Translations under genes and position numbers: made by a program
Origin: an uncultured Verrucomicrobiae bacterium
Lineage (GTDB): Bacteria; Verrucomicrobiota; Verrucomicrobiia; Chthoniobacterales; JAFAMB01
Direction: 5' to 3'
Assembly: GCA_963762565.1 (NCBI GenBank)
Contig: CAVXLD010000009.1
Span: 96,001 to 160,000, forward strand
Length of the DNA: 64,000 bases
Part shown: positions 16,657 through 41,074 of the stretch, in pieces
How the letters are laid out: the number at the start of each line of letters is the position of its first letter
Numbering within the stretch: position 1 is the first letter of the stretch
Notes under the pieces: model-generated
What the model was told of the DNA's origin: nothing
Seen by the model: the letters and a program-made list of their open reading frames with translations, nothing else
Databases searched by the model: none

Positions 16657-18690
16657 ATGAAGCTACTCCACAACCCGTGTCTTCTTCAACGAAGCAAATT
16701 TTGCTGGGCGTCGCCACGAGCCCTAGCGGGCATCTCTTTACTTTTTTTGCAGCCTGCGTTTGGACAACAACCAACACCACAGACAAAGCCCGTTATTCCA
16801 CAAGCCGAACAGCCGACAGCAACTCCAAGTGCGGAGCCAATGCTGCCGACCGGGCCGAGAGAAGAAGCCAAGCCCTTGATCCCTGCGGCCGGTATTCCTA
16901 CTCCCAGTCCTACACCGACTCTCCCTACCGAGGTCCAATCCAAGCTGGATCAAGAGTTTGAGGAAGCAATGCAAGTGCATCGATTTCGCCCGAGCTTTTT
17001 TGCGCCGCTTTCGTTGCTCGATGCAGTACGTCTGACTCTCATGCAAAATTCGGACCTTCGCATGAGTACTGAAGACGCGCAGTCGGCCCGGGGTGCGCTG
17101 AAGAAAGCGACCGGAAATTACGATGCCCAATTCATCGGTGCTCTCGGTTATGTGAGGAGTCAGCTGTCCAGCTCGAACAGTAGTAACGCAGTCTCAGCTT
17201 TCTCAACGCAGAACCAAATTACTCAGGTCCTCACCCAGACGCTGACCCAAACCCTGACCCAGCTCAAAGCCAATCCGAGCGCCAACATCAGCCAGCTCGT
17301 GAGCATGAACGCCGCCCAATCCAGCGGGTCGGCATCAACGACTGACATACAAACCATTATCGCTACCGCAGACGCTTCCAAGACTTTGCGAAACGGGATA
17401 GACCTCAGCGTTGAGTACTCCCCCCAGTTCTTAAACAACCAGGATCAACTTTCGTGGCCTCCCGCGGTTCACCAAATCACTTTTTCAATGGGAATGTCTC
17501 TCACCAAATTTGGCACGTACTTCAATTCGGCTGACGAGACGGCTGCGCGTAAAGACTATCAAGCCGCCTTGTTGACTTTAGGGCACACCACCACCAAGGC
17601 AGTGCTCGACACGATACAGGCCTACTGGAAAGAGGCGGCAGCTCTCGAGAAGTTTTATTACGAGGACCGCACCTATCGGGTAAACGCCGCGGTACTTACC
17701 CTCACCGAGGAGCTGGCCAAGAATGGTGGCGTGGCTCAAACAGAGGTTCCGCTGGCTGTGGCTCACCGAGCGGAGGCCTTTGCGTCGCGATCGGCTGCGC
17801 TAATTGAGGTCTTGAATTCAGCGAAAGCCCTGGCGGCAACCTTAGGGTTAACTCGAGAGCAGTTGCGCTTCCTCCCGTTTCCGTCGGACCATTTCCCGGG
17901 CCTGAACGAAACCGCTCTCTCAAGAATCAATGAGTCTCAATTGATCGATGTGGCGCTGGGGCGACGTCTCGATCGGTTGGCCGCCATCGAGAAAGTCGAC
18001 GGAAAACGAGTGAAGTCCGACCATGCTAGAATCGATTTGCGGCCCGATGTTAAATTCAGTCTCGGGGGAGGCGCCGACATCGTTGACGGCCGGCAGACCG
18101 GAGCCGGTTCAGGCTATACCGTGGACCCGCAGGTTAATGCTAATGTCTCACTGAACTGGACGCCCGCCAACAATAAGAAAGAAGCCGCTTTGCTCGACGC
18201 GGAAGCAGATTTGGACAAGTCCCTTATCGGCCTGGACGATATTTCCAGAGAGATCGAGTTAAGCATTCAAAACGACATCTCCACAATGCAGGCTTACCAG
18301 GTCGAGATTGCCCAGTCAGATTTGGCCGTCGAAAACTACAAAAAAAGTATAACGGATCTGCGGGAGAAGTTCCGCGTGGGAGCCGCGACCCTCATCGACG
18401 TGTTTCAGTCCGTGGATCGACTCACCAGATCAGCAGAGTTGCTGGCGGATGCACAGTCGAGCATGGCGTCGACCATCGCTAAGCTTCGGTATGACACGGC
18501 GACAATGCTGACCAGAGGCACGGTTATGCGAACCCCGGGGTTTCCAAACCCGGTGGAGAAAATGCAGCTGAAAAGAGATGTTTTTGTTACTCTGCCGGAT
18601 TTGAACCAAGAGGCAGGTCCGACCGTAAAGGACCGGAATTATGAGCCTAATATCAAATACATCTCAGGCCACCCCCCCTGGCACCACTAA
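16657..18690 (+). CDS. TolC-family outer membrane secretion protein
   Basis: Signal peptide, Pro-rich N-terminus, LSLLDAVRLTLMQN, FRVGAATLIDV; first gene of a type I secretion operon. Confidence 0.82.
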   Translation: MKLLHNPCLLQRSKFCWASPRALAGISLLFLQPAFGQQPTPQTKPVIPQAEQPTATPSAEPMLPTGPREEAKPLIPAAGIPTPSPTPTLPTEVQSKLDQEFEEAMQVHRFRPSFFAPLSLLDAVRLTLMQNSDLRMSTEDAQSARGALKKATGNYDAQFIGALGYVRSQLSSSNSSNAVSAFSTQNQITQVLTQTLTQTLTQLKANPSANISQLVSMNAAQSSGSASTTDIQTIIATADASKTLRNGIDLSVEYSPQFLNNQDQLSWPPAVHQITFSMGMSLTKFGTYFNSADETAARKDYQAALLTLGHTTTKAVLDTIQAYWKEAAALEKFYYEDRTYRVNAAVLTLTEELAKNGGVAQTEVPLAVAHRAEAFASRSAALIEVLNSAKALAATLGLTREQLRFLPFPSDHFPGLNETALSRINESQLIDVALGRRLDRLAAIEKVDGKRVKSDHARIDLRPDVKFSLGGGADIVDGRQTGAGSGYTVDPQVNANVSLNWTPANNKKEAALLDAEADLDKSLIGLDDISREIELSIQNDISTMQAYQVEIAQSDLAVENYKKSITDLREKFRVGAATLIDVFQSVDRLTRSAELLADAQSSMASTIAKLRYDTATMLTRGTVMRTPGFPNPVEKMQLKRDVFVTLPDLNQEAGPTVKDRNYEPNIKYISGHPPWHH

Positions 18691-19957
18691 AGACGGGGCG
18701 CCGCCGGAAAAAACTATCTTCCGAAAAGCCGCCTTGGAGCGGCTTTCTTCTCCGGAACAGCTCGATTATCTGATGTCGGTCACGTCGCCCGTCGGATGGC
18801 TGGCGCTTTCGGCATTGGCGGGCGTCCTTTTCCTGATTGTGCTTTGGGGGTTTCTTGGACGAATTCCCGATACGGTTTCAGGAAGCGGGATCTTGATTCG
18901 CGGCGGCGCGGTTTACGATGTTTCTGCCGGAAGCGATGGATTCATTACTCAGGTGCTGGTGAAAACGGGCGATCAAGTTAAGGCCGGCCAAGTCGTGGCA
19001 AAGATGAGCCAGTCGCAGTTGGAGCTAAAGATCAAGTCAAGCCAGGCCCAGCTAAAGGTCTTGCAGGGGCAGGACGCCGACATGACCAGTCGGGAGGATA
19101 AGAATGACGCCGCCGCGCTGGCGGACTACAAGAAACAAGATCAGGCATTGCTCGATGCCATTGCCAGCTACAAAGTTCAGATCGAAGCCGACCAGAGAGA
19201 ATTCGAAACTAAAGAAAGCCTACTGCAAAAAGGCTTAACCACGCAGGCTGAAGTCAACAAGGCGCGCGATGCCCTTTACGGCGTTAAGGGTCAGGTCGCG
19301 GATACTCAAGTCAAGGAGAGCCAGATTGGGACGGACGAAATCAAGTTAGCCCGCGACACTCAGACGTCTAGAAACGCGCGCCTGAAAGAGATCAACAGCA
19401 CGAAGCTGCAGCTCCAGGAATATATCGCGGAGCGAGATGCCGGAGTTCAAGTGGTTTGCAATTATTCGGGACGAGTGATCGAAAAGCTGGTTGAACGCGG
19501 CTCACCGGTTGTCGCAAAAGACCGGGTCATCACCGTCGAAGCGGAGGACGCGCCGATGCTGGCGGTAATCTATGTCCCCGCCGGAGAAGGGAAGAAAGTT
19601 CTGCCAAACCAGGAAATTCGGGTTTCACCTTCTACAGTGAAGGCTGAAGAGTATGGATTTATTCTCGGGAAAGTGACAAATGTTTCCTATTTCCCAAGCA
19701 CTCCGGAGGGCATGAAAGTTGTACTCAGAAACGAAGAGTTAGTGAAGGACCTTTCTACGACGGGAGCTCCTATTGAGATCACGGGCGACCTCTATCAAGA
19801 TCGGTCGACTAAGAGCGGGTACCGATGGTCTTCTTCGCAGGGACCATCAACGGGGATTTTCAGCGGCACGCTGGCCCAAGCTTCCATTGTGGTTGACCAG
19901 AAGCCGCCCATCGACTTCGTGATTCCGAAAATCAAAGAAATCCTCGGGCTCAAATGA
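18641..19957 (+). CDS. NHLP/NHLM bacteriocin-system HlyD-family membrane fusion protein
   Basis: IFRKAALERLSSPEQLD N-terminus, TM segment, coiled coil, SPSTVKAEEYGFILGKV, SGYRWSSSQGP. Confidence 0.92.
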   Translation: MSLISNTSQATPPGTTKDGAPPEKTIFRKAALERLSSPEQLDYLMSVTSPVGWLALSALAGVLFLIVLWGFLGRIPDTVSGSGILIRGGAVYDVSAGSDGFITQVLVKTGDQVKAGQVVAKMSQSQLELKIKSSQAQLKVLQGQDADMTSREDKNDAAALADYKKQDQALLDAIASYKVQIEADQREFETKESLLQKGLTTQAEVNKARDALYGVKGQVADTQVKESQIGTDEIKLARDTQTSRNARLKEINSTKLQLQEYIAERDAGVQVVCNYSGRVIEKLVERGSPVVAKDRVITVEAEDAPMLAVIYVPAGEGKKVLPNQEIRVSPSTVKAEEYGFILGKVTNVSYFPSTPEGMKVVLRNEELVKDLSTTGAPIEITGDLYQDRSTKSGYRWSSSQGPSTGIFSGTLAQASIVVDQKPPIDFVIPKIKEILGLK

Positions 19958-22137
19958 GCGACGCCATCCTGCCGTCCGACGGGGCGCTCCCCGCTCGCGT
20001 GATGACGCCGACGCTGCTGCAGATGGAGGCCGTGGAATGCGGGGCGGCGGCGTTGGGCATCATCATGCGGTATTACGATCTGTGGCGCCCGCTGGAGCAG
20101 CTCCGAATGGAATGCGGTGTGACCCGCGACGGCAGCAAAGCGAGTAATTTGTTGAAGGCGGCGCGACGTTTCGGGATGGAGGCGAACGGAATCCGTTGCG
20201 AGCTGAACGCCCTGCTAAAAACCGAACCACCGGTGATTCTCTATTGGAATTTCAATCACTTCCTGGTGTACGAGGGCGTTAGCCAAGGAAAAGTTCATTT
20301 GAACGACCCGGCTACCGGTCCTCGTCGAATTAGCATCGAAGAGCTAGAGGCCTCTTTCACCGGGGTAGTGCTGAAGATCAGCCGCGGTCCGGCCTTCGTA
20401 CCGGGCGGGGAAAAACCTAGCCTGTTAACTGCCTTGCGCCGGCGCATTTCGGGGTTCGAAATCGGTTTGAGTTTTGCGTTTTTAACCGGCTTGCTACTGA
20501 TCATTCCGAATATCGTGAACCCATCATTCACCCGGGTGTTCATCGACCAGTACCTGATCGGAGACAAGACGAGCATTCTCCGCCCATTGGTCGCCTGCAT
20601 GGCGGTCTCAATTGGCTTCATGATTTTGCTGCTTTGGTTGCAGCGCCATTTTCTATTGCGGTTGGAGACTAAGCTCGCCCTCACAACTTCCGCTAAGTTC
20701 TTTACCCATGTGGTCAAGCTGCCCATGGAATTCTATTCGCAGCGCTATGCGGGAGAAATCGGATCACGGGTGCTCATCAACGATAAGGTTGCCAAGGTTC
20801 TCTCCGATAAGCTGGTCACGACCGGGCTCGACCTGATGGCCTTGTTGTTCTTTGCCCTCGTCATGATCCAATATGATTTTTGGCTGACGTTGATCTGCGT
20901 CACCTTTGCCTTCCTCAATTTGATTGCGATCAAGGCCGTTCAACGGCCCCGGACCGATGCAAGCTTCCGGCTGCAGCAAGAACGCGGAAAGATGACCGGG
21001 ACTTCGATGAATGGCGTGCAAATGATTGAGACGCTGAAAGCGACCGGCGGTGAAGACGAGTTTTTTGGGCGGTGGTCAGGTTATCAGGCAAAGACTATCC
21101 GAGCGGAACAGGACATGGATTTATACGGTCAAACCTTGTCTGCCGTGCCTCCGCTGACCAAAGGGTTAATCACGGCCACGATCCTCGGGTTTGGTGGCTG
21201 GAGAGTCATGGATGGTCATTTAACCGTGGGTTTGTTAGTCGCCTTCCAATCATTGATGGATGGGTTCACTAAACCGATTACCTCCTTCGTGACATTCGGT
21301 AATGCGCTCCAGGAGACCGGCTCCGACTTGAACCGGCTCGACGACGTCTTGCGTTATGAAACCGATCCTATTTACGCCAGCGATCGCACGGTCAGCCCTG
21401 AGTTCAAGGCCACCATCAAATTGACCGGACTGCTCGAGGTCCGCAATCTGACCTTTGGGTTTAACCCATTAGGCGCCCCGTTAATTGAGAACCTCAGCTT
21501 CAGGGTCCGGCCGGGTGAGCGGGTCGCTTTGGTGGGCGGTAGCGGCAGCGGTAAATCGACCGTTTCCAAACTGGTAGCCGGCCTTTTCAAACCATGGAGC
21601 GGCGAGATCCTGTTCGACGGGGTTCCGCGAACGCAGATCCCTCGGCGTTTGCTGCACAATTCGATCGGTATGGTTGATCAGGATATCTTCATGTTCGAAG
21701 GCACGATTCGCGACAATCTGACCATGTGGAATCCGACAGTCCTCGACTCTCATATCACTCTAGCGTGTAAGGATTCTGCCATAGCGGAGGACGTAGCCAG
21801 CAGGCAAGGAGGTCTTTCCAGCACCGTTGCAGAAGGCGGGGTCAACTTTTCTGGTGGCCAGCGCCAAAGGCTCGAAATCGCTCGAGCCCTGGTGAATTCG
21901 CCAAGTTTTTTGATTCTGGACGAGGCCACTAGCGCGCTAGATCCAACCACTGAGGAAGTGATTGATCGCAACCTGCGTCGACGCGGCTGTTCCTGTTTAA
22001 TCGTAGCACACCGCCTAAGTACGATCCGTGACTGCGATGAGATCATCGTCCTCGAATATGGAAGAGTGGTAGAACGAGGGACGCACGAATCGATGAAAAA
22101 CGCAGGTGGCCCATATTCGAGGTTAATCAGTCATTAG
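19954..22137 (+). CDS. NHLP-type peptidase-containing ABC transporter (C39 + TMD + NBD; LanT-like)
   Basis: TPTLLQMEAVECGAA (catalytic Cys), WNFNHF, NDPA; Walker A GGSGSGKS; FSGGQRQR; ATGA overlap with hlyD. Confidence 0.95.
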   Translation: MSDAILPSDGALPARVMTPTLLQMEAVECGAAALGIIMRYYDLWRPLEQLRMECGVTRDGSKASNLLKAARRFGMEANGIRCELNALLKTEPPVILYWNFNHFLVYEGVSQGKVHLNDPATGPRRISIEELEASFTGVVLKISRGPAFVPGGEKPSLLTALRRRISGFEIGLSFAFLTGLLLIIPNIVNPSFTRVFIDQYLIGDKTSILRPLVACMAVSIGFMILLLWLQRHFLLRLETKLALTTSAKFFTHVVKLPMEFYSQRYAGEIGSRVLINDKVAKVLSDKLVTTGLDLMALLFFALVMIQYDFWLTLICVTFAFLNLIAIKAVQRPRTDASFRLQQERGKMTGTSMNGVQMIETLKATGGEDEFFGRWSGYQAKTIRAEQDMDLYGQTLSAVPPLTKGLITATILGFGGWRVMDGHLTVGLLVAFQSLMDGFTKPITSFVTFGNALQETGSDLNRLDDVLRYETDPIYASDRTVSPEFKATIKLTGLLEVRNLTFGFNPLGAPLIENLSFRVRPGERVALVGGSGSGKSTVSKLVAGLFKPWSGEILFDGVPRTQIPRRLLHNSIGMVDQDIFMFEGTIRDNLTMWNPTVLDSHITLACKDSAIAEDVASRQGGLSSTVAEGGVNFSGGQRQRLEIARALVNSPSFLILDEATSALDPTTEEVIDRNLRRRGCSCLIVAHRLSTIRDCDEIIVLEYGRVVERGTHESMKNAGGPYSRLISH

Positions 22138-22224
22138 CCTGCGCCGTCTTTGAAAGCGCAGGCTTTCAAAGACGGCGCAGGCTATGGGCAGTTAGACCGG
22201 CGCTACCGCGCCGGTCTAACTGCC
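22135..22224. repeat. Two adjacent perfect hairpins (23-bp and 17-bp stems) between the ABC genes
   Basis: tagcctgcgccgtctttgaaagc-gcag-gctttcaaagacggcgcaggcta and ggcagttagaccggcgc-tacc-gcgccggtctaactgcc. Confidence 0.85.
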
Positions 22225-22343
22225 TGTGCGAAGAACTATGTGTGAGAAACTACCAACAAATTTTGGGAGTGCAGGAGAATGGTCCGGCGTAGCCGGGGCA
22301 TTCTCCTGCCATAGCCTGGATCGCTAGTAGATCCAGGCTTCTT

Positions 22344-25292
22344 ATGGCAGTCGTTGCCTCAGCTATCAGCAATGCACTCGTAGCAGCGGGACAGCTACAC
22401 CTTCTTCGTTTGAACGAAACCTTCGTGATCGAAGGGTCGGAGAACGTTTGGTTTATTGAGAGCGGCAAAGTGGACCTTTTCACGGTCCAGCTTCAGGGAA
22501 ACGATGCGACCGGACCGAGAACTCATTTCCTTTCCTTGGAAGCCGGGTCGCTGATCTTTGGGATGGATTTTGAAAGGCAGGAGCACGGATACTGCTTTCT
22601 TCTGACCGGTCAGGAAGGGACCCATCTAATCGAACTTGATCGGGAGAAAGTGAGGCGATTGGCTCGGGACCATGAATTTGCTGCGAGCATCGGCCAACTT
22701 ACCGATCAGTGGCTGGCTCATCTCTCCGCTAGCGTCACGCGAGATGTACGGCCACTTCCGAAAGCCGATGAGCTCTTGGTCGGAGGCAAGGAAATCTTGC
22801 TGCCGCGGGAGAAAATCGCGCGGGCCCGACGTGGCATCGTTTGGGTCCAGGTAATGCGAGGAGAAGCGTTGTATCTCGGAATGGAGGCCGTTTCCCGAAC
22901 GGGCGAAGGCGTGCCGGTCTTGCCTTTGTCGCCGGATACTTGGATCGAATCCTACGACGACAATCTCCTCTCCTGCTTTTCAACACCCACCGCGATCACT
23001 CAGGCCACATTTTGGATGGGCTTGGGTCTCTTCCATGAGGTGTTGTGCCAGTGTGAATTCATTAATAAGAAGCTCAGGATTGTCGATGATTTTAACCGGC
23101 TTCGCGCGCGGGAAGCATCGGGCTTGCGGTCGCGGGACACCGCCTTGCGCGAAATTGCTTCAGTATTGGAACCCCTCGCAGAAGGCCGTGACGGAGCTCT
23201 CCTCGATGCCTCGGCTAACCCGATACTGGCGGCTTGCCGGATAGTTGGTGAAGCCTGCGGAATCCCGGTTAAAGTCCCGCCTGACCTTCATCTGGTCGCC
23301 GACAAACTCGGAGCCATCGCTAAAGCATCGCGATTTCGCTACCGCGCGGTAGCGCTCCGAGGCGATTGGTGGGAGGTCGACCATGGCTCGCTTTTGGCCT
23401 ATCGCGAAGGAACTCGTGACCCGGTTGCGATCGTTAAGACCGGCCCCAAGAGCTACGAACTCGCAGACCCACGAACGCCGAACCGGATCCCAATAACTCC
23501 GGCGGTAGCAGCCACATTGGCACCCTTCGGTGTTTCATTTTATGCCCCCTTACCAGAGACCAAGTTAGGCGCTTGGGACCTGATTAAATTTGGATTGAGA
23601 GATTCTAAATCAGACCTTCGCACCATCCTTCTGATGGGGGTTTTGGTCGGATTATTAGGCATGGTAACGCCTTACTTCAGCGGTCAGATCTTCGATTCGA
23701 TTATCCCGTCCGCTGATCGCAGCCAGTTAACCCAGTTTGCGATCGGGTTATTTGCGGCAGCCCTGGCCACATTCGCTTTCGAGCTGACTCGTTCGATCGC
23801 CGTGCTCCGGCTCACCGGTAAGATGGACTACTCAGTTCAAGCCGGAGTCTGGGATCGCCTCCTGAACTTGCCGTCCACCTTCTTTCGAGAGTACACGGCC
23901 GGCGACCTCACCGACCGCGCGCTGGGCGTCGAACAGATTCGACAAGCGATCTCTCAATCCGGTACGCAGGCGATCGTCGGGGCAATCAGCGCTGTGATTA
24001 CGGGGATCTTTCTTTTCTCCTACAACCTCCAGATGGCGGCCATCGCTATCGCTCTGGTGGCGGTAGGAGTCCTGCTCCCCTGCTCTATCAATTTTCTGCA
24101 GTTACGCAATCAGCAACGCATGTTCAGAATGCGCGGGTTGATCACGGGCCTCGTTCTCCAGCTGATCAGCGGCGTCGCAAAGATCCGAGTTTCCGGAGCA
24201 GAAGACTCCGCATTCCGTGAATGGACTCGCAGATTTTCGGCTCAGAAGCGACTCGCCTTTCGGGTCGGATTCCTCGCCAACATTATCCAGGTCTTCAGCC
24301 GAGTATTTCCCGTCATTGCGACGGCGATCATTTTCTTCGCCTACGGCTGGCTACGAGACCAAGCCGCTGCGAACCATGATAAGTTCGGCATGACGACGGG
24401 CCAGTTCGTTGCCTTCAACGGCGTCTTCATGAATGTCCTCTCAAGCATGTTGGCGCTGAGCGGGGTTGTTCTCGATCTGCTGATCATCTTTCCGTTGTTT
24501 CAACGGCTACGGCCGATCATCCAAAGTGAACCTGAGATCGATGAAGCTAAAGCTCATCCTGGAGAATTGAGCGGTGAAGTGGAGGTTTATCATCTCTCAT
24601 TTCGCTACACCGAGGATGGGCCATTGATTCTGAAGGATGTCTCTCTCTTAATCCGACCAGGGGAATTCGTTGCGCTAGTAGGCGGCTCCGGATCTGGAAA
24701 ATCCACCCTGCTCCGTCTGCTCCTTGGCTTTGAGAAACCGGAGTCCGGAGCGATTCTTTACGATAGCCAGGAGCTCTCTTCTTTGGACCTGCGGGCGGTC
24801 CGGCGGCAAATCGGAGTCGTCCTGCAATCAAGCAAGCTGATGCCAACAGACATCTATCGGAACATCATCGGGTCGCATACAACTCTTACACTAAACGACG
24901 CTTGGGAGGCCGCCAGAATGGCTGGCCTCGATCGAGATATCAAAAATATGCCCATGGGCATGAACACCGTCGTATCCGAAGGTGGCGGCACGTTTTCGGG
25001 CGGTCAGCGGCAACGTCTTATGGTGGCGCGAGCGCTGGTGAATCGGCCTAGAATTGTTTTTTTTGACGAGGCAACCAGCGCGATGGATAACGAAACGCAA
25101 CGTACGGTCACTGAAAGCCTGGACGCCATGCAAGCAACTCGGATCGTTATCGCCCATCGATTGAGCACCATTATTAATGCGGACCGAATTTTCGTCCTGA
25201 AATATGGCGAGCTGGTTCAGACCGGTGCCTACACGGAATTGATGAATCAACCGGGGCCATTTGCCGATCTTGCCAAACGACAGCTGGCTTAA
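22344..25292 (+). CDS. NHLM bacteriocin-system ABC transporter, second (non-proteolytic) subunit
   Basis: N-terminal cNMP-binding-like region (WFIESGKVDLF), degenerate C39-like region (LRGDWWEVDHG), TMD, NBD with GGSGSGKST and FSGGQRQR. Confidence 0.92.
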   Translation: MAVVASAISNALVAAGQLHLLRLNETFVIEGSENVWFIESGKVDLFTVQLQGNDATGPRTHFLSLEAGSLIFGMDFERQEHGYCFLLTGQEGTHLIELDREKVRRLARDHEFAASIGQLTDQWLAHLSASVTRDVRPLPKADELLVGGKEILLPREKIARARRGIVWVQVMRGEALYLGMEAVSRTGEGVPVLPLSPDTWIESYDDNLLSCFSTPTAITQATFWMGLGLFHEVLCQCEFINKKLRIVDDFNRLRAREASGLRSRDTALREIASVLEPLAEGRDGALLDASANPILAACRIVGEACGIPVKVPPDLHLVADKLGAIAKASRFRYRAVALRGDWWEVDHGSLLAYREGTRDPVAIVKTGPKSYELADPRTPNRIPITPAVAATLAPFGVSFYAPLPETKLGAWDLIKFGLRDSKSDLRTILLMGVLVGLLGMVTPYFSGQIFDSIIPSADRSQLTQFAIGLFAAALATFAFELTRSIAVLRLTGKMDYSVQAGVWDRLLNLPSTFFREYTAGDLTDRALGVEQIRQAISQSGTQAIVGAISAVITGIFLFSYNLQMAAIAIALVAVGVLLPCSINFLQLRNQQRMFRMRGLITGLVLQLISGVAKIRVSGAEDSAFREWTRRFSAQKRLAFRVGFLANIIQVFSRVFPVIATAIIFFAYGWLRDQAAANHDKFGMTTGQFVAFNGVFMNVLSSMLALSGVVLDLLIIFPLFQRLRPIIQSEPEIDEAKAHPGELSGEVEVYHLSFRYTEDGPLILKDVSLLIRPGEFVALVGGSGSGKSTLLRLLLGFEKPESGAILYDSQELSSLDLRAVRRQIGVVLQSSKLMPTDIYRNIIGSHTTLTLNDAWEAARMAGLDRDIKNMPMGMNTVVSEGGGTFSGGQRQRLMVARALVNRPRIVFFDEATSAMDNETQRTVTESLDAMQATRIVIAHRLSTIINADRIFVLKYGELVQTGAYTELMNQPGPFADLAKRQLA

Positions 25293-25348
25293 AGTAGCGA
25301 AACTGGTAGCCAGCCATACCTCTACGGACCTAACGCGCGGCTCACCCT

Positions 25349-26845: not shown

Positions 26846-26900
26846 TAATGGATTTGCAGACATGCCGGTGGCTGTCGAACTCCAGTAGAGGAGATTTGTA

Positions 26901-31220: not shown

Positions 31221-31454
31221 TGGAGGGAGCCGCTTTGTAGCATTGAAGCTCCATCGGTTGGCAGACAGGCGGCTCCCGAGAACGTCTCCACGTGCCGCAG
31301 TTCTATCGCCGTCGTGTCTCTCCGCCGTACCAAACCAAATGCGATGGGAAATTGCTGCCGCTGGGCAATTCCCGGGAGCCGCTTGTCTACCCCGAAAACT
31401 TTCGGTGGCTGCCAACTTGCATAACTGCCAAGCTACAAAGCGGCTCCCCTCCAG
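31221..31454. repeat. Nested palindromic repeat, family A
   Basis: tggagggagccgctttgtagc...gctacaaagcggctcccctcca with inner ggcggctcccg/cgggagccgc. Confidence 0.85.
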
Positions 31455-31479
31455 GCCCTGGGCGCCAAACGAGCCCTCC

Positions 31480-32847: not shown

Positions 32848-32871
32848 GCGGTTTGGACTTCTTGCGTTTCT

Positions 32872-34062: not shown

Positions 34063-34335
34063 ATGTTTTTCAACCGCTTTGGCAGATATCGAAGTGTTGA
34101 TCTGTGATGATGGTCTAAAGGTCCCATCGAGTCGCCGTTATCGGGCGTCCGATCGTTTGTTTGTGGGTTTAGCGGGTAATCCTCGCAAAACGCCGCCAGC
34201 TCCCAAAAAAAGAATATCGAGCGAGAGTAGGGGTAGCGTGCGGCGAGTAAGACGCGTCGTTTTGATATCCTGATCCTGGAGTTTCCACGCAATCCCTTGA
34301 CCTGGGGTTTGCTCCGGAGGTTGCCCGTCACTCAT
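34059..34335 (-). CDS. Small ORF upstream of the oxygenase, possibly frameshifted at a T7 run
   Basis: The ATG 34335 frame stops at 34138; a second frame runs to TGA 34059, overlapping the cupin ATG (ATGA). Confidence 0.4.
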
Positions 34336-34509
34336 ATGGTTCTTTGGGGAGAATTTTTTTAACAAGGGCGTCGCGCAGCGGTCAAGATTAAAAGGCTTCT
34401 CCTTGACGCCCCTGATCGACCGCGCCAAAAACCAGGAAGCGGGCGGCCGTAGCGGCCGCCCCGCTCTCTTGCTATTTGCTAATTCCTATTCGCGAAGCGT
34501 TGTTCCGGA

Positions 34510-36402
34510 ATGGCGGCGCGGACGGTCAAGATTCATCGGCGGGACGAAATTCCGGTCAGTGATACTTGGGACCTGGGGCAGCTGTTTCCGGTAGAGGAAG
34601 ATTATCAGCGGGTCCTAAATGGAGTGCGCGCCAGATACCTGCGGTATTCTGAGTACAAAGGGCATCTCGGCGGGTCGGCGGTGGGGTTGGCCGACTATTT
34701 GGAATTCGATGCATCGATTGATCGGGACCTGGAAAAGCTGACGCATTATGCTTCGCTAAAAAAAGCGGAGGATGGGTCCGAACCAGCGAATGTCGCTCGT
34801 TGGGCAGAATTACGGAATCTTGGGACCCGGGTCGCCGAATCCAGAGCTTTTGCGGCGCCCGAAATTCAACGCCTGACCGAAGATCAATTTGCGGAATTGA
34901 TCAGTGATCCGATCCTAGAGCCCTGGCAGATTTATCTGGAACGGATACGGCGTTATTTATCCTACACGCTGCCAGCCGGTGAAGAACGGTTACTCTCGCT
35001 CGCTGGTCCCGCTCTTTCCGGCTATAAAGAGATTTTTTCTCAACTGACCAATTTAGATATGAAGTTTGGCCGGTTGACGACGAACCATGGGGAAAGAATC
35101 GAGTTAACTCTTGGGTTAGCCGATTCACTTCTGGCTAACCAGGATCAGGGAACGCGCCGGCGGGCATTTCATAAACTTTATCGTCAAATTGAGAATCACC
35201 GGTTTACTTTGGCTAGCGCTCTGGCGGCCTCCGTGCGGGTTGACGTCTATTATGCTCGCAGCCGCAGGTATTCCTCGGCGCTGGCTGCTGCTCTATTCCA
35301 GGATAACATACCGGTAGCCGTCTACGATAATCTGGTGGCATCGGTCCGTAGCAATCTTCCACTGGTTCACCAGTACTATGCCTTGCGCCGACAGACGTTC
35401 GCCAGGGCTAAGCTTTACTATCATGACACGTTCGTCAGGATCGCACCGGACATCTATGTTCATACCCAATTCGATGAAGCGATCGATCTGGTATGCGAAG
35501 CCTTGGCTCCGTTAGGGAAGGAGTACGTCCAAGGGTTACGAAATGGTTTTAATGCTCGCTGGGTTGATCGGTATGAGACCCCGGGCAAACGGACGGGATC
35601 GTTCTCGTCATCGAGTTATCGTAATCCGCCGTTTATGCTGTTCAATTATCGGACGGCTACAATCTCAAGCGTGTTCGCAGTTGCCCACGAAGCCGGTCAC
35701 TCGATGCATACCTGGCTCTCGCAGAGTAGTCAGCCGTTCCGCTACTATAAACCGCCGGCTCTTCTGGCGGAAGTTGCCGCCATGGTCAACGAAGAATTGT
35801 TGACCGATTTTTGGTTGAACCGGACCACCGAACCTAATATCCGGGCTTTTCTGATTGACCGCAGTCTGGAACGACTGCGTTCGGTGTTGGTCCATCAAAC
35901 CATGTTCGCAGAGTTTGAACGCACAATTCATGAGACCGAGGAATCAGGCAGTGGACTTACTTTGGAGTTTTTTCGCCAGACCTATGGCGGGTTGCTGAAG
36001 GAATATCTGGGCTCAGAGATCACGATCGATCCGGAGCTGGAATTGGAGTGTTTACGGATTCCGCATTTTTATTCGGCCTTTTACGTTTATCGGTATGCGC
36101 TCGGGATTTCAGCCGCGACGATGCTGGCAACGAAGATCAAGAACGGAGAAGCGGAATGTCGGTGCCGGTATCTAGAGCTGTTGCGAGCAGGCCGGACTAA
36201 GTTTCCGATCGACGCATTGCTGGATGTCGAGGTTGATCTACGAAGTCCCGAGCCGGTAGCGCATACGATGGACGTTTTTGCTAAGCGGCTAGGTCAGCTG
36301 CGACAGCTCGTGGCCGGGTTCGAAAAATCTCCCACAGCGCAGCGCCCGCGGAACGCGATCAAGGCTGTAAACTCCAAAGGAATTGTGAATCCCTGCGCTT
36401 GA
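34510..36402 (+). CDS. Oligoendopeptidase F family (M3B) peptidase, paralogue 1
   Basis: TWDL, RWVDRYE..GKR, HEAGHSMH, AEVA, RIPHFYSAFYVY. Confidence 0.92.
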   Translation: MAARTVKIHRRDEIPVSDTWDLGQLFPVEEDYQRVLNGVRARYLRYSEYKGHLGGSAVGLADYLEFDASIDRDLEKLTHYASLKKAEDGSEPANVARWAELRNLGTRVAESRAFAAPEIQRLTEDQFAELISDPILEPWQIYLERIRRYLSYTLPAGEERLLSLAGPALSGYKEIFSQLTNLDMKFGRLTTNHGERIELTLGLADSLLANQDQGTRRRAFHKLYRQIENHRFTLASALAASVRVDVYYARSRRYSSALAAALFQDNIPVAVYDNLVASVRSNLPLVHQYYALRRQTFARAKLYYHDTFVRIAPDIYVHTQFDEAIDLVCEALAPLGKEYVQGLRNGFNARWVDRYETPGKRTGSFSSSSYRNPPFMLFNYRTATISSVFAVAHEAGHSMHTWLSQSSQPFRYYKPPALLAEVAAMVNEELLTDFWLNRTTEPNIRAFLIDRSLERLRSVLVHQTMFAEFERTIHETEESGSGLTLEFFRQTYGGLLKEYLGSEITIDPELELECLRIPHFYSAFYVYRYALGISAATMLATKIKNGEAECRCRYLELLRAGRTKFPIDALLDVEVDLRSPEPVAHTMDVFAKRLGQLRQLVAGFEKSPTAQRPRNAIKAVNSKGIVNPCA

Positions 36403-37558
36403 CGAGCCATTGATTATCGCTTGCCCGCACCTGCGCGCCGATAGGATAAACTTTGAGATCAAGAGAGGCGGCCGAAGGCATGCCTATTTCGACCCAGTGG
36501 TGTAGCCGTTCCAGCAACCGTTCTTCGGCTTTATGATTGCCGTACGTGATCAGCCAATCGTCTCGTGCAATTACCAGTGAGCCGCTGGCCGCGTCCCACA
36601 ACCCGAAATAATGATGCTCGGTTGAGTCTTCGAGTTTCGGGGTTTTGAATGCACGAAATGCCGACTCAGTTATGCCTAGAAAGGAGCGGATGCCAACTGT
36701 AGACCAAATTCGAGTGGTTTCTCCTTTGGCACCCCACCAGAAGCGTCTCTTACTGATCTCCCTATTCTGAAGCTGGCTCCACTCCGGTATTGCTCTGTCT
36801 AGCGTATTCGGCTCCAGATCATCGAATTGATATGAGCCCCTAAGTTGCACAAATCCGCACCGCGTCGACCACAAGGATTCGAAGTGATCCTCCGTTTTCC
36901 GCAGTAGAAACAAGTGGTCTCCGCCGCCTTCCGTCTTAATAACCACAAGCAAGAGCCCCTGATCTCGGAGCTGTTCGTAAAAATAGCGCGGCAAATCGAA
37001 GGTTCCGGCCGTAAAGACTGCACGGTCGTATGGAGCCGAATTGTGGCATCCTTGTGCCCCGTCACCGATGAGAATCTGGACGTTTGCGATTCCAAATGAG
37101 GCGATATTTTGGACCGCATTCTGCGCTAGTTCAGGAATGATCTCGACGCTAACGACGTGCCCTTTCTGGCCAACAATCCGTCCCATTAGAGCGGCGCTCC
37201 ATCCACTGCCCGCGCCCAGCTCGAGAACTCTGTCTCCTACCTTTAGTTCCAACAGGTCGAGCATTCTGAGAACTAAAGAGGGTTGTGAAATCGTCGAGAG
37301 AATATTTTGGTCGTCGTTTCCAAACAGAATAAGCGGGCGGTCTGCGTACAGTGTTGCGATGTGCTCCGCCAAACTCTCTGGCTCGACCACCTGCCATTCT
37401 TTGGTGCCCCATTCGCGATAGCGTCTGACAAAGCAATGCCGAGGAGTCGCAAGGTACGCCTGCTTGGTTGCTTCGCTAATCGGGGTGTCTCGATAGAGAC
37501 TCTGCGTCTGCTCCAAAAGTTGTTTCTGGTATTTCTCGATATTCTCCACCCGGCGCAC
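36359..37558 (-). CDS. Protein-L-isoaspartate O-methyltransferase-like protein with a long C-terminal extension
   Basis: TPRHCFV, STISQPSLV, VLELGAGSGWSAA, VSVEI, GDG, PYDR, QLRDQGLL; 399 aa versus ~210 aa for housekeeping Pcm. Confidence 0.88.
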   Translation of the reverse strand: MRRVENIEKYQKQLLEQTQSLYRDTPISEATKQAYLATPRHCFVRRYREWGTKEWQVVEPESLAEHIATLYADRPLILFGNDDQNILSTISQPSLVLRMLDLLELKVGDRVLELGAGSGWSAALMGRIVGQKGHVVSVEIIPELAQNAVQNIASFGIANVQILIGDGAQGCHNSAPYDRAVFTAGTFDLPRYFYEQLRDQGLLLVVIKTEGGGDHLFLLRKTEDHFESLWSTRCGFVQLRGSYQFDDLEPNTLDRAIPEWSQLQNREISKRRFWWGAKGETTRIWSTVGIRSFLGITESAFRAFKTPKLEDSTEHHYFGLWDAASGSLVIARDDWLITYGNHKAEERLLERLHHWVEIGMPSAASLDLKVYPIGAQVRASDNQWLVKRRDSQFLWSLQP

Positions 37559-37930
37559 CTATTCCTTAGCGGGAACGACCTGGTTGTTTTCGCCCGCGGT
37601 CTCTATCTTCGGACGCGCACCGTTCAGGCCTTGACGATAGGTAACTACATTGTCGTTCCCGACCAGCTGGATAATGCCAACGGCGTCCAAGGTGATCTTA
37701 TTGTTGTGGCCTAGGATCTCTACTTTGGAACAGTCACCGGTGATGGTGATTTGATCGCTATTGCCGGTGATCTCGAAATGTCTGCCTTCACCTTTATAAT
37801 CTAATTTTTCGCCCGAGGTGATCACTTCCACCTGACCTGCCGGGCCTGCGCCAGCGTTATGTCCGAAGAGAAGCGGGGCCGAAGCAATGGTTGCTAACAT
37901 CAAACGAAACAAGGCCGATCTGTTTTTCAT
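37559..37930 (-). CDS. Secreted DUF3060-like protein (paralogue of 32479-32847)
   Basis: ITGNSDQITITGDCSKVEILGHNNKITLDAVG closely matches the other copy. Confidence 0.75.
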   Translation of the reverse strand: MKNRSALFRLMLATIASAPLLFGHNAGAGPAGQVEVITSGEKLDYKGEGRHFEITGNSDQITITGDCSKVEILGHNNKITLDAVGIIQLVGNDNVVTYRQGLNGARPKIETAGENNQVVPAKE

Positions 37931-38151
37931 AGAATGATCCTGAACCGCAATACACGGTCTAACTGCTCCAAGTTTTAGCTAACTACATGTGGTGAAAATC
38001 ATTTTCGCGATTTCGCTGAATGATTCCCTGTCGAGTTTTATGAAAGCCGGCCGCGAGGAGCCGAATTTCATTACGGGTTCTATACAATGAATGGCAAACA
38101 ACAGAAAAGAACAATTGGTCGGGTTTTTTGTGTGATGGGGTTGGGGGACAG

Positions 38152-38401
38152 CTGGAGGGGAGCCGCTTTGGCGTTTGCCTCACCACCCGGTGCATTTATT
38201 CGAAGGTGAAGTGCGGCGGCAAACGGTGGTAAACAAGCGGCTCCCGGGAACTATCCAGCGTCCGCCATCTGCTTCGCCGCCCACGGTATGAAAAACCCTT
38301 GATACGGACGCCATGGGCAAATGCGCCGCGCTGGGTCCTTCCCGGGAGCCGCCTGCCAGCATCCGATAGAACTGCCGGCCTACAAAGCGGCTCCCCTCCA
38401 G
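38152..38401. repeat. Nested palindromic repeat, family A
   Basis: ctggaggggagccgctttg...caaagcggctcccctccag. Confidence 0.85.
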
Positions 38402-38422
38402 GCGCTTGCGCACCCGTTCTCC

Positions 38423-39130
38423 CTAATCCGCTTTATCTACGTCGTTATTCGCACCGTGTTGTTCTGAAACAACATCCCCTGAGCTAAGCGCCTGTTTGTA
38501 AGTCACATCGTTATTAGAGCCATGGAAAATCACTTTGCTGACCTGATCGATCTCGACGTCGTTGTTTGAGCCTTCGATCTCCAGCAGCTGGGCGACCCCG
38601 GTGAACACCACAGCGTTATTGCTGCCGATCAGCTTGACGTGTGGCTTATTGATCGCGCGAGTTTGGTTGTCATTGGTCAGGGTGACTAACTGAATGTCGC
38701 CATTGTTTTCCGCGATCGGGGCCGGGGACGCCGCTGAGGAGTTGTCAGAACCCAGGGCGGAGACCTGCTTGGCCTCGTTATCCTGCCCAATGTTCGCGAT
38801 GCTTGGAGTTTCGCCGCTGAGGGCATGGAGATACGCCACGTGATTCGAGTTGCCGATCATCTGGATGTCTCCCACCCGCTCCACCTCGACTGAATTGCCG
38901 TTGCCCAAAACTTTCAGACTCGAACAGTCCCCATGGATCTGCACCCGGTTATTGTTGCCGGTGATCACCTTGGGCTTGCCATCTCCCTCTAAGGATAGCG
39001 TCTGGTTATTGGACGCAAGAAGGGTTTGATTAAGAACTGGGACATTTTCAGTGACGGACTGCGCCAGGGTAATCGTCCCCGTCGCCATTAAGGCTCCAAT
39101 CGAGAGCACGGATAATACGGCTGTCCTCAT
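38423..39130 (-). CDS. Secreted protein with two DUF3060-like domains
   Basis: Signal peptide; repeated GNNN/GNSN/GSNN units in two blocks separated by a Ser/Ala/Pro linker. Confidence 0.75.
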   Translation of the reverse strand: MRTAVLSVLSIGALMATGTITLAQSVTENVPVLNQTLLASNNQTLSLEGDGKPKVITGNNNRVQIHGDCSSLKVLGNGNSVEVERVGDIQMIGNSNHVAYLHALSGETPSIANIGQDNEAKQVSALGSDNSSAASPAPIAENNGDIQLVTLTNDNQTRAINKPHVKLIGSNNAVVFTGVAQLLEIEGSNNDVEIDQVSKVIFHGSNNDVTYKQALSSGDVVSEQHGANNDVDKAD

Positions 39131-39229
39131 AAGGCTAAAAGTTCTGAGTGTTTGGTCTGTTTCGATCCTCGGCTTAACGCCTCATACCACCTACCCATCC
39201 ACTCGGCAAAAAGTTGCGGGTAAATTCAG

Positions 39230-41074
39230 TTATTTTGGCGCGGCGGGCAGCGATTCTGGCTGTAGCGTCTGCATTAACTCCCTAAGGTGTGAGAGACGCT
39301 CGGCGAAAACCTTCATCGTATAGGCCATCGGTTCCTCACTCCGAAGATCGATTTCAAGATCGAGCAGTGCTTCCGTCGCAAATTTTGTTCGGCCGGCGCG
39401 CAGAAGCTCGAGATAACGGTGCCTATACCCGGCATCACCACTCTTGAGTTTCTTCGCTAGCAGCATCGCCGCTGAAATTGCGATAGCATATCGATAGACG
39501 TAAAACGCTGTGTAAAAATGAGGAATCCGCAGAAATTCCAACTCCAGCTCCGGATCGATAGTGATCTCCGGCCCAACGTATTCCCTTAACAAAGAGCCAT
39601 AGGTCTTGCGGAAAAACTCCAAAGTAAGCCCGACGCCTGACTCCTCGGTCTCATGGATCGTCTTCTCGAACTCAGCGAACATTGTTTGGCGAACCAGCAC
39701 CGAACGGAGTCTTTCTAGACTTCGGTCGATCAAGAATGCCCGGATTTTTGCCTCAGATGTCCGGTTCAGCCAAAATTCGTGCAGCAATTCTTCGTTGAGC
39801 ATGGCGGCAACCTCGGCCAACAGAACCGGTGGTTTGTAATACCGAAAAGGTTGGCTGGCTTGGGAAAACCACGTGTGCATCGAATGGCCGCATTCATGTG
39901 CTACCGAGAACACGCTGGAAATCGTATCGACCCAATAATTCATCAAAATGAAGGGAGGATTTCGATAACTCGACGATGAGAAGGAACCGGGTCGTTTGCC
40001 TTGGGCCGCGTAGCGGTCCACCCAGCGAGCATTAAGTCCCTTTCGCAACGCTTCCACGTATTCCTCTCCTAAAGGTCTCAACGCCCCGCAGACCAGTTCG
40101 ATCGCTTCATCGAACTGGGTATGAACCAGAATCTCCGGCGCAATCGGAATGAAAGTATCATAGTAATAAAGTTTCCGGATGCCGAACGCCTGCCTCCGGA
40201 GAGCGTAGTACTGATGAACAGTGGGGAGACTATTCCGGACCGTCGCGATCAAACTATCGTAGACGGTGAGTGGAATGTTATCCTGAAACAAAGCCATCTC
40301 CCGCGCCGAGGCATACTGGCGGCTGCGTGCGTAGTAAACGTCGACTCGAACGGAGTGAGCCAGCGCGCTAGCCAGAGTAAACTGATGGTTCCTAATTTGT
40401 CGATAAAGCCGATGAAATGCGCGTCGGCGGGTTCCCCGGTCTGGGTTGGCAAGAAGCGCGTCAGCTAAACCTAGGGTTAGACCTATTTTTTCACCATGGT
40501 TTGTCGTCAAAGTGCCGAACTTCATGTCGGCATTTGTCAATTGAGAAAAGACTTCCTTGTACCCAGAAAGAGTGGATCCAGCGAGAGAAAGTATTCGCTC
40601 CTCGCCGGCGGATAACGTGTGTGGTCGATACCGCCGTATCCGTTCTAAATAGATCCTCCACGGAGCAAGGATGGGGGCTTGCATCAACTCTGTAATCTGT
40701 TCGTGGGCTAAGTTTTGAATTTCCGGGACCGCGAACGACCTAGAATCGGCGACCTGAGTTCCCAGGTGGCGCAGTTCTGCCCACCGGGCGATGTTGCGCG
40801 GCTCAGAACTATCTTCCGCTTTCTTTAGGGAGGCGTAGTGGGTGAGTTTTTCCAACTCGCAATCAATCAACGCGTCGAATTTCAGATAATTTGCCAGACA
40901 TGCCGCCGAGTCGCCAAGATGCCCTTTGAACTCGGGATACTTCTTGTAGCTCGTGCGTACATTTTCCAAAAGCCGCAGATATTCCTGCTCGCTTTGAAAC
41001 AGGTGACTCAGATCCCAAGTATCCCTAACCGGAATCTCGCTACGATATGGAACGCTGATCGTTCGTGGAGCCAT
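39230..41074 (-). CDS. Oligoendopeptidase F family (M3B) peptidase, paralogue 2
   Basis: TWDL, HECGHSMH, RIPHFY; colinear and highly similar to 34510-36402. Confidence 0.92.
   Translation of the reverse strand: MAPRTISVPYRSEIPVRDTWDLSHLFQSEQEYLRLLENVRTSYKKYPEFKGHLGDSAACLANYLKFDALIDCELEKLTHYASLKKAEDSSEPRNIARWAELRHLGTQVADSRSFAVPEIQNLAHEQITELMQAPILAPWRIYLERIRRYRPHTLSAGEERILSLAGSTLSGYKEVFSQLTNADMKFGTLTTNHGEKIGLTLGLADALLANPDRGTRRRAFHRLYRQIRNHQFTLASALAHSVRVDVYYARSRQYASAREMALFQDNIPLTVYDSLIATVRNSLPTVHQYYALRRQAFGIRKLYYYDTFIPIAPEILVHTQFDEAIELVCGALRPLGEEYVEALRKGLNARWVDRYAAQGKRPGSFSSSSYRNPPFILMNYWVDTISSVFSVAHECGHSMHTWFSQASQPFRYYKPPVLLAEVAAMLNEELLHEFWLNRTSEAKIRAFLIDRSLERLRSVLVRQTMFAEFEKTIHETEESGVGLTLEFFRKTYGSLLREYVGPEITIDPELELEFLRIPHFYTAFYVYRYAIAISAAMLLAKKLKSGDAGYRHRYLELLRAGRTKFATEALLDLEIDLRSEEPMAYTMKVFAERLSHLRELMQTLQPESLPAAPK

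Follow-up and report, generated by a model that had tools for sequence, protein, structure and literature searches.

The NHLP family of leader peptides, its trio of transport proteins and its occurrence beside class II lanthipeptide synthetases (LanM) were described by Haft et al., and slightly over 60% of the NHLP peptides encoded next to LanM contain Cys (PMC2887384; papers are cited here by PubMed Central identifier). The closest described system is the dpr cluster of Desulfotomaculum sp., whose LanM, DprM, was reported in 2025 to give natural cores with one Cys a single methyllanthionine (16-22 atoms), with a preference for Thr, to require the entire NHLP leader (tail-only leaders made by deleting residues 1-65 or 1-74 were not substrates) and to leave the Cys-free NHLP precursor DprE6 untouched (PMC12537861). 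In the pha cluster, LanM is found with a GNAT and an Fe/alpha-ketoglutarate hydroxylase (PMC8784127). Here we analyse 64,000 nucleotides from an uncultured Verrucomicrobiae bacterium (contig CAVXLD010000009.1, positions 96,001 to 160,000; this whole stretch is “the window” below), in which a lanM gene lies beside NHLP-type export genes and several small precursor genes. Our reading, to which we give a probability of roughly 0.6, is that positions 16657-31106 form a class II lanthipeptide cluster that is self-contained, has the NHLP/Nif11 (proteusin-like) type of export and is under sigma-54 control, and that the genes at 32479-41074 are mere neighbours.

The members of this cluster all lie on the plus strand and are separated by short gaps in the list of open reading frames (ORFs). 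They are given here with their model scores in bits and, where given, the cut-off of the model:

16657-18690, + strand: TolC-like outer membrane efflux protein (OEP), 677 amino acids (aa), the first gene of the plus-strand block (PF02321, 57.4 bits)
18641-19957, + strand: HlyD-type secretion protein of the NHLP bacteriocin system (TIGR03794, 323.6 against a cut-off of 156.2)
19954-22137, + strand: NHLP export ATP-binding cassette (ABC) transporter with an N-terminal C39 peptidase, ABC1 (TIGR03796, 1033.8 against 853.3)
22344-25292, + strand: second NHLP export ABC subunit (permease/ATPase), ABC2, 982 aa (TIGR03797, 900.4 against 709.4)
25349-26497, + strand: sigma-54 activator of PspF-like architecture (PF00158, 198 bits at residues 49-215; AAA lid at 221-298)
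26715-26749, + strand: exact direct repeat GTTCCATTTTCGAG, two copies 21 bp apart, the sole two exact copies in the window
26830-26845, + strand: sigma-54 -24/-12 promoter TGGCACGGCTGCTGCT, 56 nt ahead of the NHLP start codon
26901-27215, + strand: NHLP-leader precursor, 104 aa, with the Cys-free core FLSADNNMLSPQDPAF after Gly-Gly (TIGR03793, 71.8 against 50.9)
27270-27392, + strand: mini-precursor copy 1 (ORF of 40 aa), a 22-aa double-Gly leader and the core TFDNNSCNALIEATVIVG
27472-27594, + strand: mini-precursor copy 2 (ORF of 40 aa), same peptide as copy 1
27675-27797, + strand: mini-precursor copy 3 (ORF of 40 aa), same peptide as copy 1
27875-27997, + strand: mini-precursor copy 4 (ORF of 40 aa), leader change T10N, core unchanged
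28022-28049, + strand: G+C-rich hairpin of 12 bp (12 pairs, 10 of them G-C), then UUUAUAUUU, directly after copy 4
28065-31106 (ORF 28020-31106), + strand: class II synthetase LanM, 1013 aa, CCG type, DxH His replaced by Leu (TIGR03897, 591.5 against 304)

HlyD, ABC1, ABC2, the NHLP precursor and LanM all exceed the curated NCBIfam cut-offs and the Pfam domain content agrees, so that the TIGR03794, TIGR03796 and TIGR03797 trio that marks NHLP/Nif11 export stands here beside precursors with Gly-Gly leaders; the leaders of the NHLP peptide and of the mini-precursors both terminate in VAGG. A preliminary description of this DNA, made from the sequence alone, had listed these genes and had called the locus a class II lanthipeptide system with the NHLP trio, four mini-precursors and a CCG-type LanM. 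That gene content was recovered at or near the same positions from the ORFs, Pfam and NCBIfam, the class assignment was borne out by these and by the motifs described below, and the five NHLP and LanM hidden Markov models (HMMs; TIGR03793, TIGR03794, TIGR03796, TIGR03797 and TIGR03897) each scored above cut-off. Its statement that all the genes lie on one strand holds as far as a GNAT gene downstream of lanM but not beyond it, where both strands are used. It did not mention the Cys-free core of the NHLP peptide, the sigma-54 promoter, the hairpin before lanM or a LanC-like gene at 10583-11845.

The four mini-precursor genes form a tandem array (period 203, 3.6 copies, 92% matches) in which a spacer of about 80 nt upstream of each gene is part of the repeat, and the peptide of copies 1-3 is MSEEIQKPETVSDEQLEDVAGG (leader) followed by TFDNNSCNALIEATVIVG (core). 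Nineteen codons vary among the four copies, 18 of them synonymously only and one with the T10N change in the leader of copy 4, and all 8 of the variable codons within the core are silent; this excess of silent change is far above chance and points clearly to strong purifying selection on the peptide sequence. In the leader, which ends in Gly-Gly, positions -4, -7 and -12 are occupied by Val, Leu and Val; these are the hydrophobic leader positions described for C39 recognition (PMC12537861). Between the promoter and lanM, no encoded peptide other than the mini-precursors contains Cys. Besides the window's own entry the family has 15 relatives, all annotated “hypothetical protein” where they are named, with cores ranging from near-identical up to WFDVNHSTVLCIASGSSVV and FLDVKNSTILCIASGSSVV. 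The leader segment SDEQLEDVAGG and Asp3 of the core are invariant in all 12 aligned members, and 11 of the 12 have one Cys, the same 11 cores having both Cys and Ser/Thr; one family member, P0136, has no Cys. The four 40-aa peptides lack the folded N-terminal domain of NHLP leaders. PF28158 is a precomputed label on some of the relatives, and the window peptides gave no Pfam match at E up to 10. Neither the string TFDNNSC nor DEQLEDVAGG was found in the searchable literature, a search to which the supplements of PMC7268733, PMC8784127 and PMC12537861 do not belong. In TFDNNSCNALIEATVIVG and its relatives the cluster contributes a core that is not yet characterised, from a lineage little studied so far.

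LanM is assigned to the CCG type by its HWCCGNLG motif, and its ORF carries both domains expected of this class of enzyme (PF13575, 326 bits at residues 202-581, and PF05147, 153 bits at residues 686-1024), the nearest solved structures being LicM2 (E 8.4e-50) and CylM. An exhaustive search at E up to 1e-3 gave 11,446 relatives, among which nine 50%-identity representatives stood far above the rest (one at 82% identity and eight at 36-43%, 535-846 bits); the next match scored 377 bits and all later matches had at most 35% identity. A quick maximum likelihood tree with a midpoint root, made from 40 rows out of the 150 listed matches (the nine closest full-length sequences and 31 others), placed the window LanM in a nine-row clade (Shimodaira-Hasegawa-like approximate likelihood ratio test support, SH-aLRT, 100; stem 0.95); this LanM has at most 33% identity with all matches outside the clade. 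The nearest LanMs in the plasmid collection had at most 29% identity, too little for conclusions on synteny. A small, deep clade is added to the NHLP-type class II lanthipeptides.

The kinase-like residues of CylM (Asp252/His254, Lys274, Asp347, Asn352, Asp364, Arg506 and Thr512; PMC4550811) have counterparts that are conserved in the clade, in SDRHDDG (P-loop Asp and His), YKPKD (Lys), DLLLEN (Asp and Asn), PIDLET (metal Asp) and TRLIFRST (elimination Arg and Thr), and the zinc ligands and active-site His of the cyclase domain are present in GFAHG, WCSG and WCCG. The DxH His is absent: Leu takes its place in DLLLEN (residues 338-343 counted from the ATG at 28065), and Leu, Gln or Trp replaces it in 9 of the 10 clade rows, while it is present in 11 of the 12 rows outside the clade. 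As judged from these alignments, the loss is a real clade-wide departure from the LanM family pattern. In CylM the corresponding Asp347 and His349 are described as LanM-conserved, and a H349A variant gave little product early on and almost full modification by 10 h (PMC4550811). As the other motifs are kept and CylM-H349A still modifies its substrate, the window LanM is probably active, perhaps with altered kinetics, and the clade offers a natural test of what the DxH His does.

Were LanM inactive, or employed on some other substrate, the mini-precursors could instead be unmodified double-glycine bacteriocins or signals that share the exporter. Their leader has a weak match to the CTB family of bacteriocins (NF038167, 23.9 bits, under the cut-off of 32, with residues 1-27 on model positions 1-28), which fits this idea, as do the missing DxH His and the Cys-free P0136. 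We nevertheless hold it to be highly improbable, the least likely of the alternatives weighed here, as the remaining catalytic and zinc residues are kept across the LanM clade, Cys and Ser/Thr occur together in all but one of the aligned mini-precursor cores, the precursor genes abut lanM, and CylM-H349A still completes modification (PMC4550811).

The export genes would serve the modified peptide. The C39 peptidase (PF03412) occupies residues 19-144 of ABC1, ABC2 is close in length to its Nostoc punctiforme homologue, and the OEP scores 35 bits with TIGR01844, under the cut-off. Directly after ABC2 comes the sigma-54 activator, which has neither a receiver nor a sensor domain and just 48 residues ahead of its AAA+ core. 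The promoter pattern TGGCAC-N6-TGCW has a single match in the 64-kb window where 0.21 are expected, with at least one match in 19 of 100 shuffles; as this statistic is modest, the case for the promoter at 26830 rests on its position, its strand and the activator gene just upstream. A relaxed sigma-54 pattern had 18 matches in the window against 26.75 expected. The two GTTCCATTTTCGAG repeats, found some 90-115 bp upstream from the -24 element, are a candidate binding site for the activator. Short tandem repeats are also present between the activator gene and the promoter (GGCGTTC, 5.6 copies at 26497-26535, and about 150 nt later AACCGCC, 2.9 copies at 26679-26698).

The hairpin between copy 4 and lanM is unusually stable: the folding energy of the 76-nt stretch around it is -31.1 kcal/mol (z = -4.17), and among 200 shuffles 1 was equally stable. 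By analogy with other lantibiotic operons, it is likely to be a partial terminator or attenuator that sets the ratio of precursor to enzyme. The earlier ATG of the long LanM ORF (28020-31106) lies under this hairpin, and the closest LanM relative (82% identity, 1013 aa) aligns over residues 1-1013 with the protein that begins at 28065, for which two reasons the ATG at 28065 is the most likely start of LanM.

From these parts we infer the following sequence of events. The sensor-less activator would open the promoter at 26830, which would drive the NHLP gene and the four mini-precursor genes, and the hairpin would pass part of the transcripts on into lanM. LanM, judging from its family membership and from DprM, would phosphorylate and dehydrate Ser/Thr of the 18-residue core and then add its single Cys7 to one dehydro residue, giving a ring between Thr1 and Cys7 (22 atoms) or between Cys7 and Thr15 (28 atoms). 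The C39 domain of ABC1 should cleave after Gly-Gly, and ABC1/ABC2, HlyD and OEP would, as expected of their families, export the product across both membranes; the Cys-free NHLP peptide may leave by the same route, unmodified or only dehydrated. The likely product, by analogy, is the 18-residue core with one (methyl)lanthionine, which had been proposed at the outset and which is the natural prediction for a core with one Cys, DprM and its DprE substrates being the precedent (PMC12537861).

The NHLP peptide itself is a full-length member of its family. It scores above the cut-off of the HMM, and a low-confidence structural model (predicted local distance difference test score, pLDDT, 57) has a three-helix N-terminal domain (helices at 9-22, 24-32 and 34-42), then a hairpin and, at 79-85, a helix in the tail, the core being disordered. 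The top fold match of the model is 9CJX, the DprE2 leader (probability 0.96, template modelling (TM) scores 0.47/0.55), and the family profile matches the solved leaders 9CJX (E 2.7e-8) and 8TB1 (E 2.7e-6). With an E limit of 0.001 the peptide had 58 relatives, the few named ones being called “NHLP leader peptide family RiPP precursor” (RiPP, a peptide made by the ribosome and modified post-translationally) and coming from Chthoniobacterales or from Verrucomicrobia metagenome-assembled genomes. In the 27 of the 58 that were aligned, the leader is highly conserved and is followed by a core of about 16 residues with the pattern FLSA[ED]xN...QDPxL; 24 of these cores are Cys-free, two have one Cys and one, P0193, is a fusion. 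Cys-free NHLP peptides beside LanM are not unusual, given the published figure of only slightly over 60% with Cys (PMC2887384).

The mini-precursor aligns to residues 77-95 of the NHLP peptide only, that is to the tail of the leader and the first core residues (LTDAELENVAGGFLSADNN against VSDEQLEDVAGGTF--DNN, 10 of 19 identical), the leader part corresponding to NHLP residues 77-88. Because DprM requires the whole leader, such short leaders stand out, and there are two ways to explain them: a short leader is recognised by the distant LanM clade, as it is by most class II enzymes, or else the NHLP peptide gives assistance in trans. P0193, a protein of 86 aa on a contig of 2168 bp, has NHLP residues 1-46 fused in frame with a complete mini-precursor, and is either a natural deletion variant that ties both precursor types together or an assembly artefact.

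Help in trans, in its full form, would make this a naturally split leader, with the Cys-free NHLP peptide giving its three-helix domain to the divergent LanM without the DxH His and with the mini-precursors as the substrates. Leader peptides activate LanM enzymes when added separately or when fused to the enzyme. Such a division would suit a mini-leader that matches only the NHLP tail, an NHLP gene that comes first in the operon and relatives that are Cys-free in 24 of the 27 aligned; DprM, moreover, is described as needing the folded N-terminal NHLP domain and as refusing tail-only leaders (PMC12537861), and P0193 would then be the unsplit form. We regard a split leader as unlikely all the same. 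Short leaders suffice for most class II synthetases, and the Leu(-7) that belongs to the class II leader motif (PMC7268733) is present in the mini-leader, whereas the NHLP core is conserved in the manner of a product and its lack of Cys is, as said, common beside LanM (PMC2887384). The window LanM clade is far from all others, its likeness to DprM being one of description only, and P0193 is a single record from a 2.2-kb contig that may be misassembled. Whether the short leader is read directly or with help, a Cys-free full-length NHLP peptide beside Cys-bearing precursors with tail-only leaders bears directly on NHLP leader recognition.

Beyond lanM lie genes that the preliminary description had joined to the cluster as an unusual tailoring set:

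31480-32352 (ORF 31204-32352, likely start about 31480), + strand: tandem-duplicated GNAT (two PF00583 stretches, halves 69% identical)
32479-32847, - strand: DUF3060 protein (a), with signal peptide
32872-34062, - strand: JmjC_2 protein (Pfam)
34510-36402, + strand: PepF, HExxH intact
36359-37558, - strand: PIMT, 399 aa (PF01135, 130 bits at residues 69-240)
37559-37930, - strand: DUF3060 protein (b), with signal peptide
38423-39130, - strand: double DUF3060 protein (c), with signal peptide and two domains
39230-41074, - strand: PepF, HExxH intact

These downstream genes belong to three or more units that use both strands, mostly the one opposite to lanM, and no peptide-like small ORF was found in the gaps at 34063-34509 and 37931-38422. 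The JmjC protein groups with RoxA/uL16-hydroxylase-like cupins. The DUF3060 proteins combine N-terminal signal peptides with Asn/Gly-rich repeats (a and b being 53% identical) and, as all three carry signal peptides, are not cytoplasmic enzymes. The two PepF proteins are paralogues with 73% identity, and the three DUF3060 genes are interleaved with them, the whole looking like a locally duplicated module. In the plasmid collection DUF3060 was found on two Deinococcus plasmids only, with unrelated neighbours in the one inspected, and the searchable literature held an unrelated mention of DUF3060 only; nor was “oligoendopeptidase F” found there together with “lanthipeptide” and “leader peptide”.

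The GNAT gene is on the strand of lanM and starts 374 bp past it. A selidamide-type function is not indicated, as the protein scores only 24 bits against NpuN, the GNAT of the npu cluster, and neither the NHLP nor the mini-precursor core contains a Lys to act as acceptor. About 60 nt before its likely start there is a sigma-54-like site with two mismatches, TGGCTGCCAACTTGCA, at 31406-31421 on the plus strand; because such sites are not enriched in the window (the 18 against 26.75 given above), this is a mere lead for co-regulation. We have assigned the GNAT (31480-32352) neither to the cluster nor to its neighbours.

Linkage was followed through relatives of the PIMT. At E up to 0.001 there were 915 of these; among the best 120, almost all are at least 59% identical and about 397 aa long, and the family spans 59-94% identity over more than 100 clusters from many phyla. 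A genome scan gave 71 loci (L001-L071) of 1.9-21.2 kb, with relatives 29-72% identical to the window PIMT, from Binatia/Deltaproteobacteria, Chloroflexota, Verrucomicrobiota, Acidobacteriota, Cyanobacteria and others. When 20 window proteins were compared with these by tblastn, LanM, NHLP, mini-precursor, GNAT, JmjC, PepF and DUF3060 were found in 0 of the 71 loci, and the matches besides the PIMT were to a generic ABC ATPase only, in 9 of the 71. An HMM built on the DUF3060 domains of the window likewise found none in the 71 loci, and a control with it recovered all three window genes. No neighbouring family of at least 70 aa was common to more than 6 of 66 loci and no family of small ORFs within 1.2 kb of the PIMT was common to more than 3 of 35, so that across the 71 loci the PIMT does not co-localise with a RiPP enzyme or precursor.

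It is very unlikely, in our estimation, that this lanthipeptide has in the GNAT, JmjC, PIMT, two PepF and three DUF3060 genes a dedicated set for tailoring, processing or immunity, which would give a hypermodified product. They do sit immediately 3' of lanM, the core has an invariant Asp3, and there is a precedent in that GNATs are described in about 8% of NHLP/Nif11 clusters, pha uniting LanM, GNAT and an Fe/alpha-ketoglutarate hydroxylase (PMC8784127). Set against this are the 71 PIMT loci without any other candidate gene, the grouping of the JmjC protein with RoxA/uL16-hydroxylase-like cupins, the signal peptides on every DUF3060 protein, the three or more units on both strands, the lack of Lys in the cores together with the 24-bit score against NpuN, and the lack of a link in the searchable literature between oligoendopeptidase F and lanthipeptide leader peptides. 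The notion of a tailoring set is therefore not borne out, its members being unlinked (the PIMT) or else in separate units, of generic families or secreted. We treat 32479-41074 as neighbours because of the unlinked PIMT relatives, the gene orientation and the families, and the synteny in this argument is that of the relatives of the PIMT, not of those of LanM. For genome mining this means that flanking “tailoring” genes are not to be counted in a cluster without synteny evidence.

The PIMT deserves separate mention, as about 150 aa at its C-terminus make up an additional domain, in which W355, G359 and P361 (WxxxGxP) are invariant in 18 of 18 aligned rows, and so has both the PIMT domain and the C-terminal WxxxGxP domain of RiPP-modifying PIMTs; solved PIMTs match positions 57-243 of its profile only. 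Its start codon abuts the stop codon of the secreted DUF3060 gene (b). The structural model is poor (pLDDT 50.1, predicted TM score (pTM) 0.43), with 1DL5, the long Thermotoga maritima PIMT, as top fold match (TM 0.20-0.24), and its scores with the RiPP-specific models are far below their cut-offs (TIGR04364, 138.9 against 320; TIGR04188, 131.9 against 380).

On these features one could propose a class II “lanthimiditide”, in which the extended PIMT would methylate the invariant Asp3 of the cyclised core and so give an aspartimide or isoAsp. The Asp3 is followed by Asn in the window core, and by Val in three members of the mini-precursor family. Val is a poor partner for imide formation. Asn is one n+1 residue observed in lanthipeptide cases, and the WxxxGxP motif is described for RiPP-modifying PIMTs (PMC13001092); the order of elements in the C-terminal domain of the poor model (b-a-b-b-b-b-a) is that given for PAMTs (PMC10787088), and the fold match to 1DL5 is again to a long PIMT. 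We find the proposal very doubtful. No relative among the 71 PIMT loci, at 29-72% identity and from many phyla, is near LanM or a precursor, and the family is unusually conserved (more than 100 clusters at 59% identity or above), which fits a general enzyme. Class I and a TxDGC motif are described for the lanthipeptide-linked PAMTs, and 70% of PAMTs are said to lack a link to RiPPs (PMC10787088). The scores with TIGR04364 and TIGR04188 also speak against it, and the gene is on the strand opposite to lanM in an operon with a secreted DUF3060 protein.

Returning to the reading of 16657-31106 as a self-contained cluster, the following points weigh against it and hold its probability at the level given above. 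The mini-leaders correspond to the NHLP tail only, whereas DprM rejects leaders truncated in this way (PMC12537861). The missing DxH His may mean that LanM has reduced or altered activity. The ring could be Thr1-Cys7 or Cys7-Thr15, which the sequence does not tell apart. All 12 aligned members have Asp3 in the core, and a PIMT with WxxxGxP is encoded 5 kb away. A two-mismatch sigma-54-like site of a kind not enriched in the window lies ahead of the GNAT, and the right-hand border is drawn solely from the PIMT loci, gene orientation and family identity.

Composition gave no border marker either, as GC content, GC content at third codon positions and codon-usage distance are flat over the 64-kb window. 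The flanks look like ordinary chromosome, with LarC, transaldolase, CarA, MutL and PFK on the right. On the left, immediately upstream of the cluster and on the opposite strand, are a carboxylic acid reductase (12219-15743, - strand; NF041592, 1656 bits, cut-off 1300) and a STAS-domain protein (15754-16518, - strand). A stand-alone LanC-like protein of 420 aa is encoded 4.8 kb upstream of the cluster (10583-11845, + strand; PF05147, 146 bits); the motifs GWCHG and RCCG occur in it, it is 24% identical to the cyclase domain of LanM, and its gene is adjoined by those of a histidine kinase (6825-8660, - strand) and a sigma-54-dependent response regulator (8860-10227, - strand). Further left is an Acido-Lenti-1 RNA motif (6120-6164, - strand; RF01687, 41.8 bits, gathering score 37), adjoined by an IS200-like Y1 transposase gene (6235-6684, + strand).

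Among known systems, the CTB family of cyanobacterial double-glycine bacteriocins (NF038167) shares with the mini-precursors a short acidic Gly-Gly leader and export by a C39 ABC transporter, and differs in that the leader score stays below the cut-off (23.9 < 32), the cores are not related and here a neighbouring gene encodes a LanM. The LanSA/PAMT systems (OlvA-type lanthimiditides) have a PIMT with a WxxxGxP C-terminal domain near a lanthipeptide cluster and an invariant core Asp, as found here, but the described cases are class I clusters of Actinomycetota with TxDGC and conserved co-localisation (PMC13001092, PMC10787088), whereas here the cluster is class II, the motif is TFDNN, the gene is on the opposite strand and co-localisation is missing in 71 of 71 relatives.

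The npu (nostolysamide) cluster on pNPUN01 of Nostoc punctiforme and other selidamide clusters (PMC8784127) also contain LanM, precursor, GNAT, HlyD, ABC1 and ABC2, and because npu has this layout the combination of LanM, GNAT and NHLP exporter is not new. The novelty first claimed for the locus accordingly stands for the core, which is not in the searchable literature and whose relatives are unnamed, and falls for the gene combination, which has precedents in npu and pha. NpuM is only 29% identical to the window LanM, however, the GNAT here is a tandem duplicate with 24 bits against NpuN, and the cores here offer neither Lys nor Orn for acylation. ProcM, the synthetase of the prochlorosins, acts on many diverse cores with long leaders, whereas here one core is repeated four times behind a short leader and the LanM belongs to a separate nine-row clade. 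Prochlorosin-type systems, with their CCG-type LanMs and Nif11/NHLP leaders, share with this cluster the CCG zinc site, the TIGR03794/TIGR03796/TIGR03797 trio and the Gly-Gly site (PMC2887384).

The dpr cluster (DprM and DprE1-7) has most in common with the locus described here, with a LanM serving several precursors that have one Cys or none, an NHLP precursor without Cys among the genes of the cluster, a product with a single (methyl)lanthionine (predicted here), the Gly-Gly leader end, hydrophobic residues at -4, -7 and -12 and C39 ABC export (PMC12537861). The window NHLP peptide also matches DprE2 (9CJX) by both profile and fold (E 2.7e-8, probability 0.96), and the likeness of the two LanMs is one of description. 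It differs in that the cores of dpr are diverse (PMC12537861), whereas here 22-aa leaders corresponding to the NHLP tail precede one core in four copies, there are no radical S-adenosylmethionine or RiPP recognition element genes, control is by sigma-54 and the LanM lacks the DxH His. What is new in this cluster, compared with all of these systems, is its core family, its small LanM clade without the DxH His and the pairing of truncated-leader Cys precursors with a full-length Cys-free NHLP peptide.

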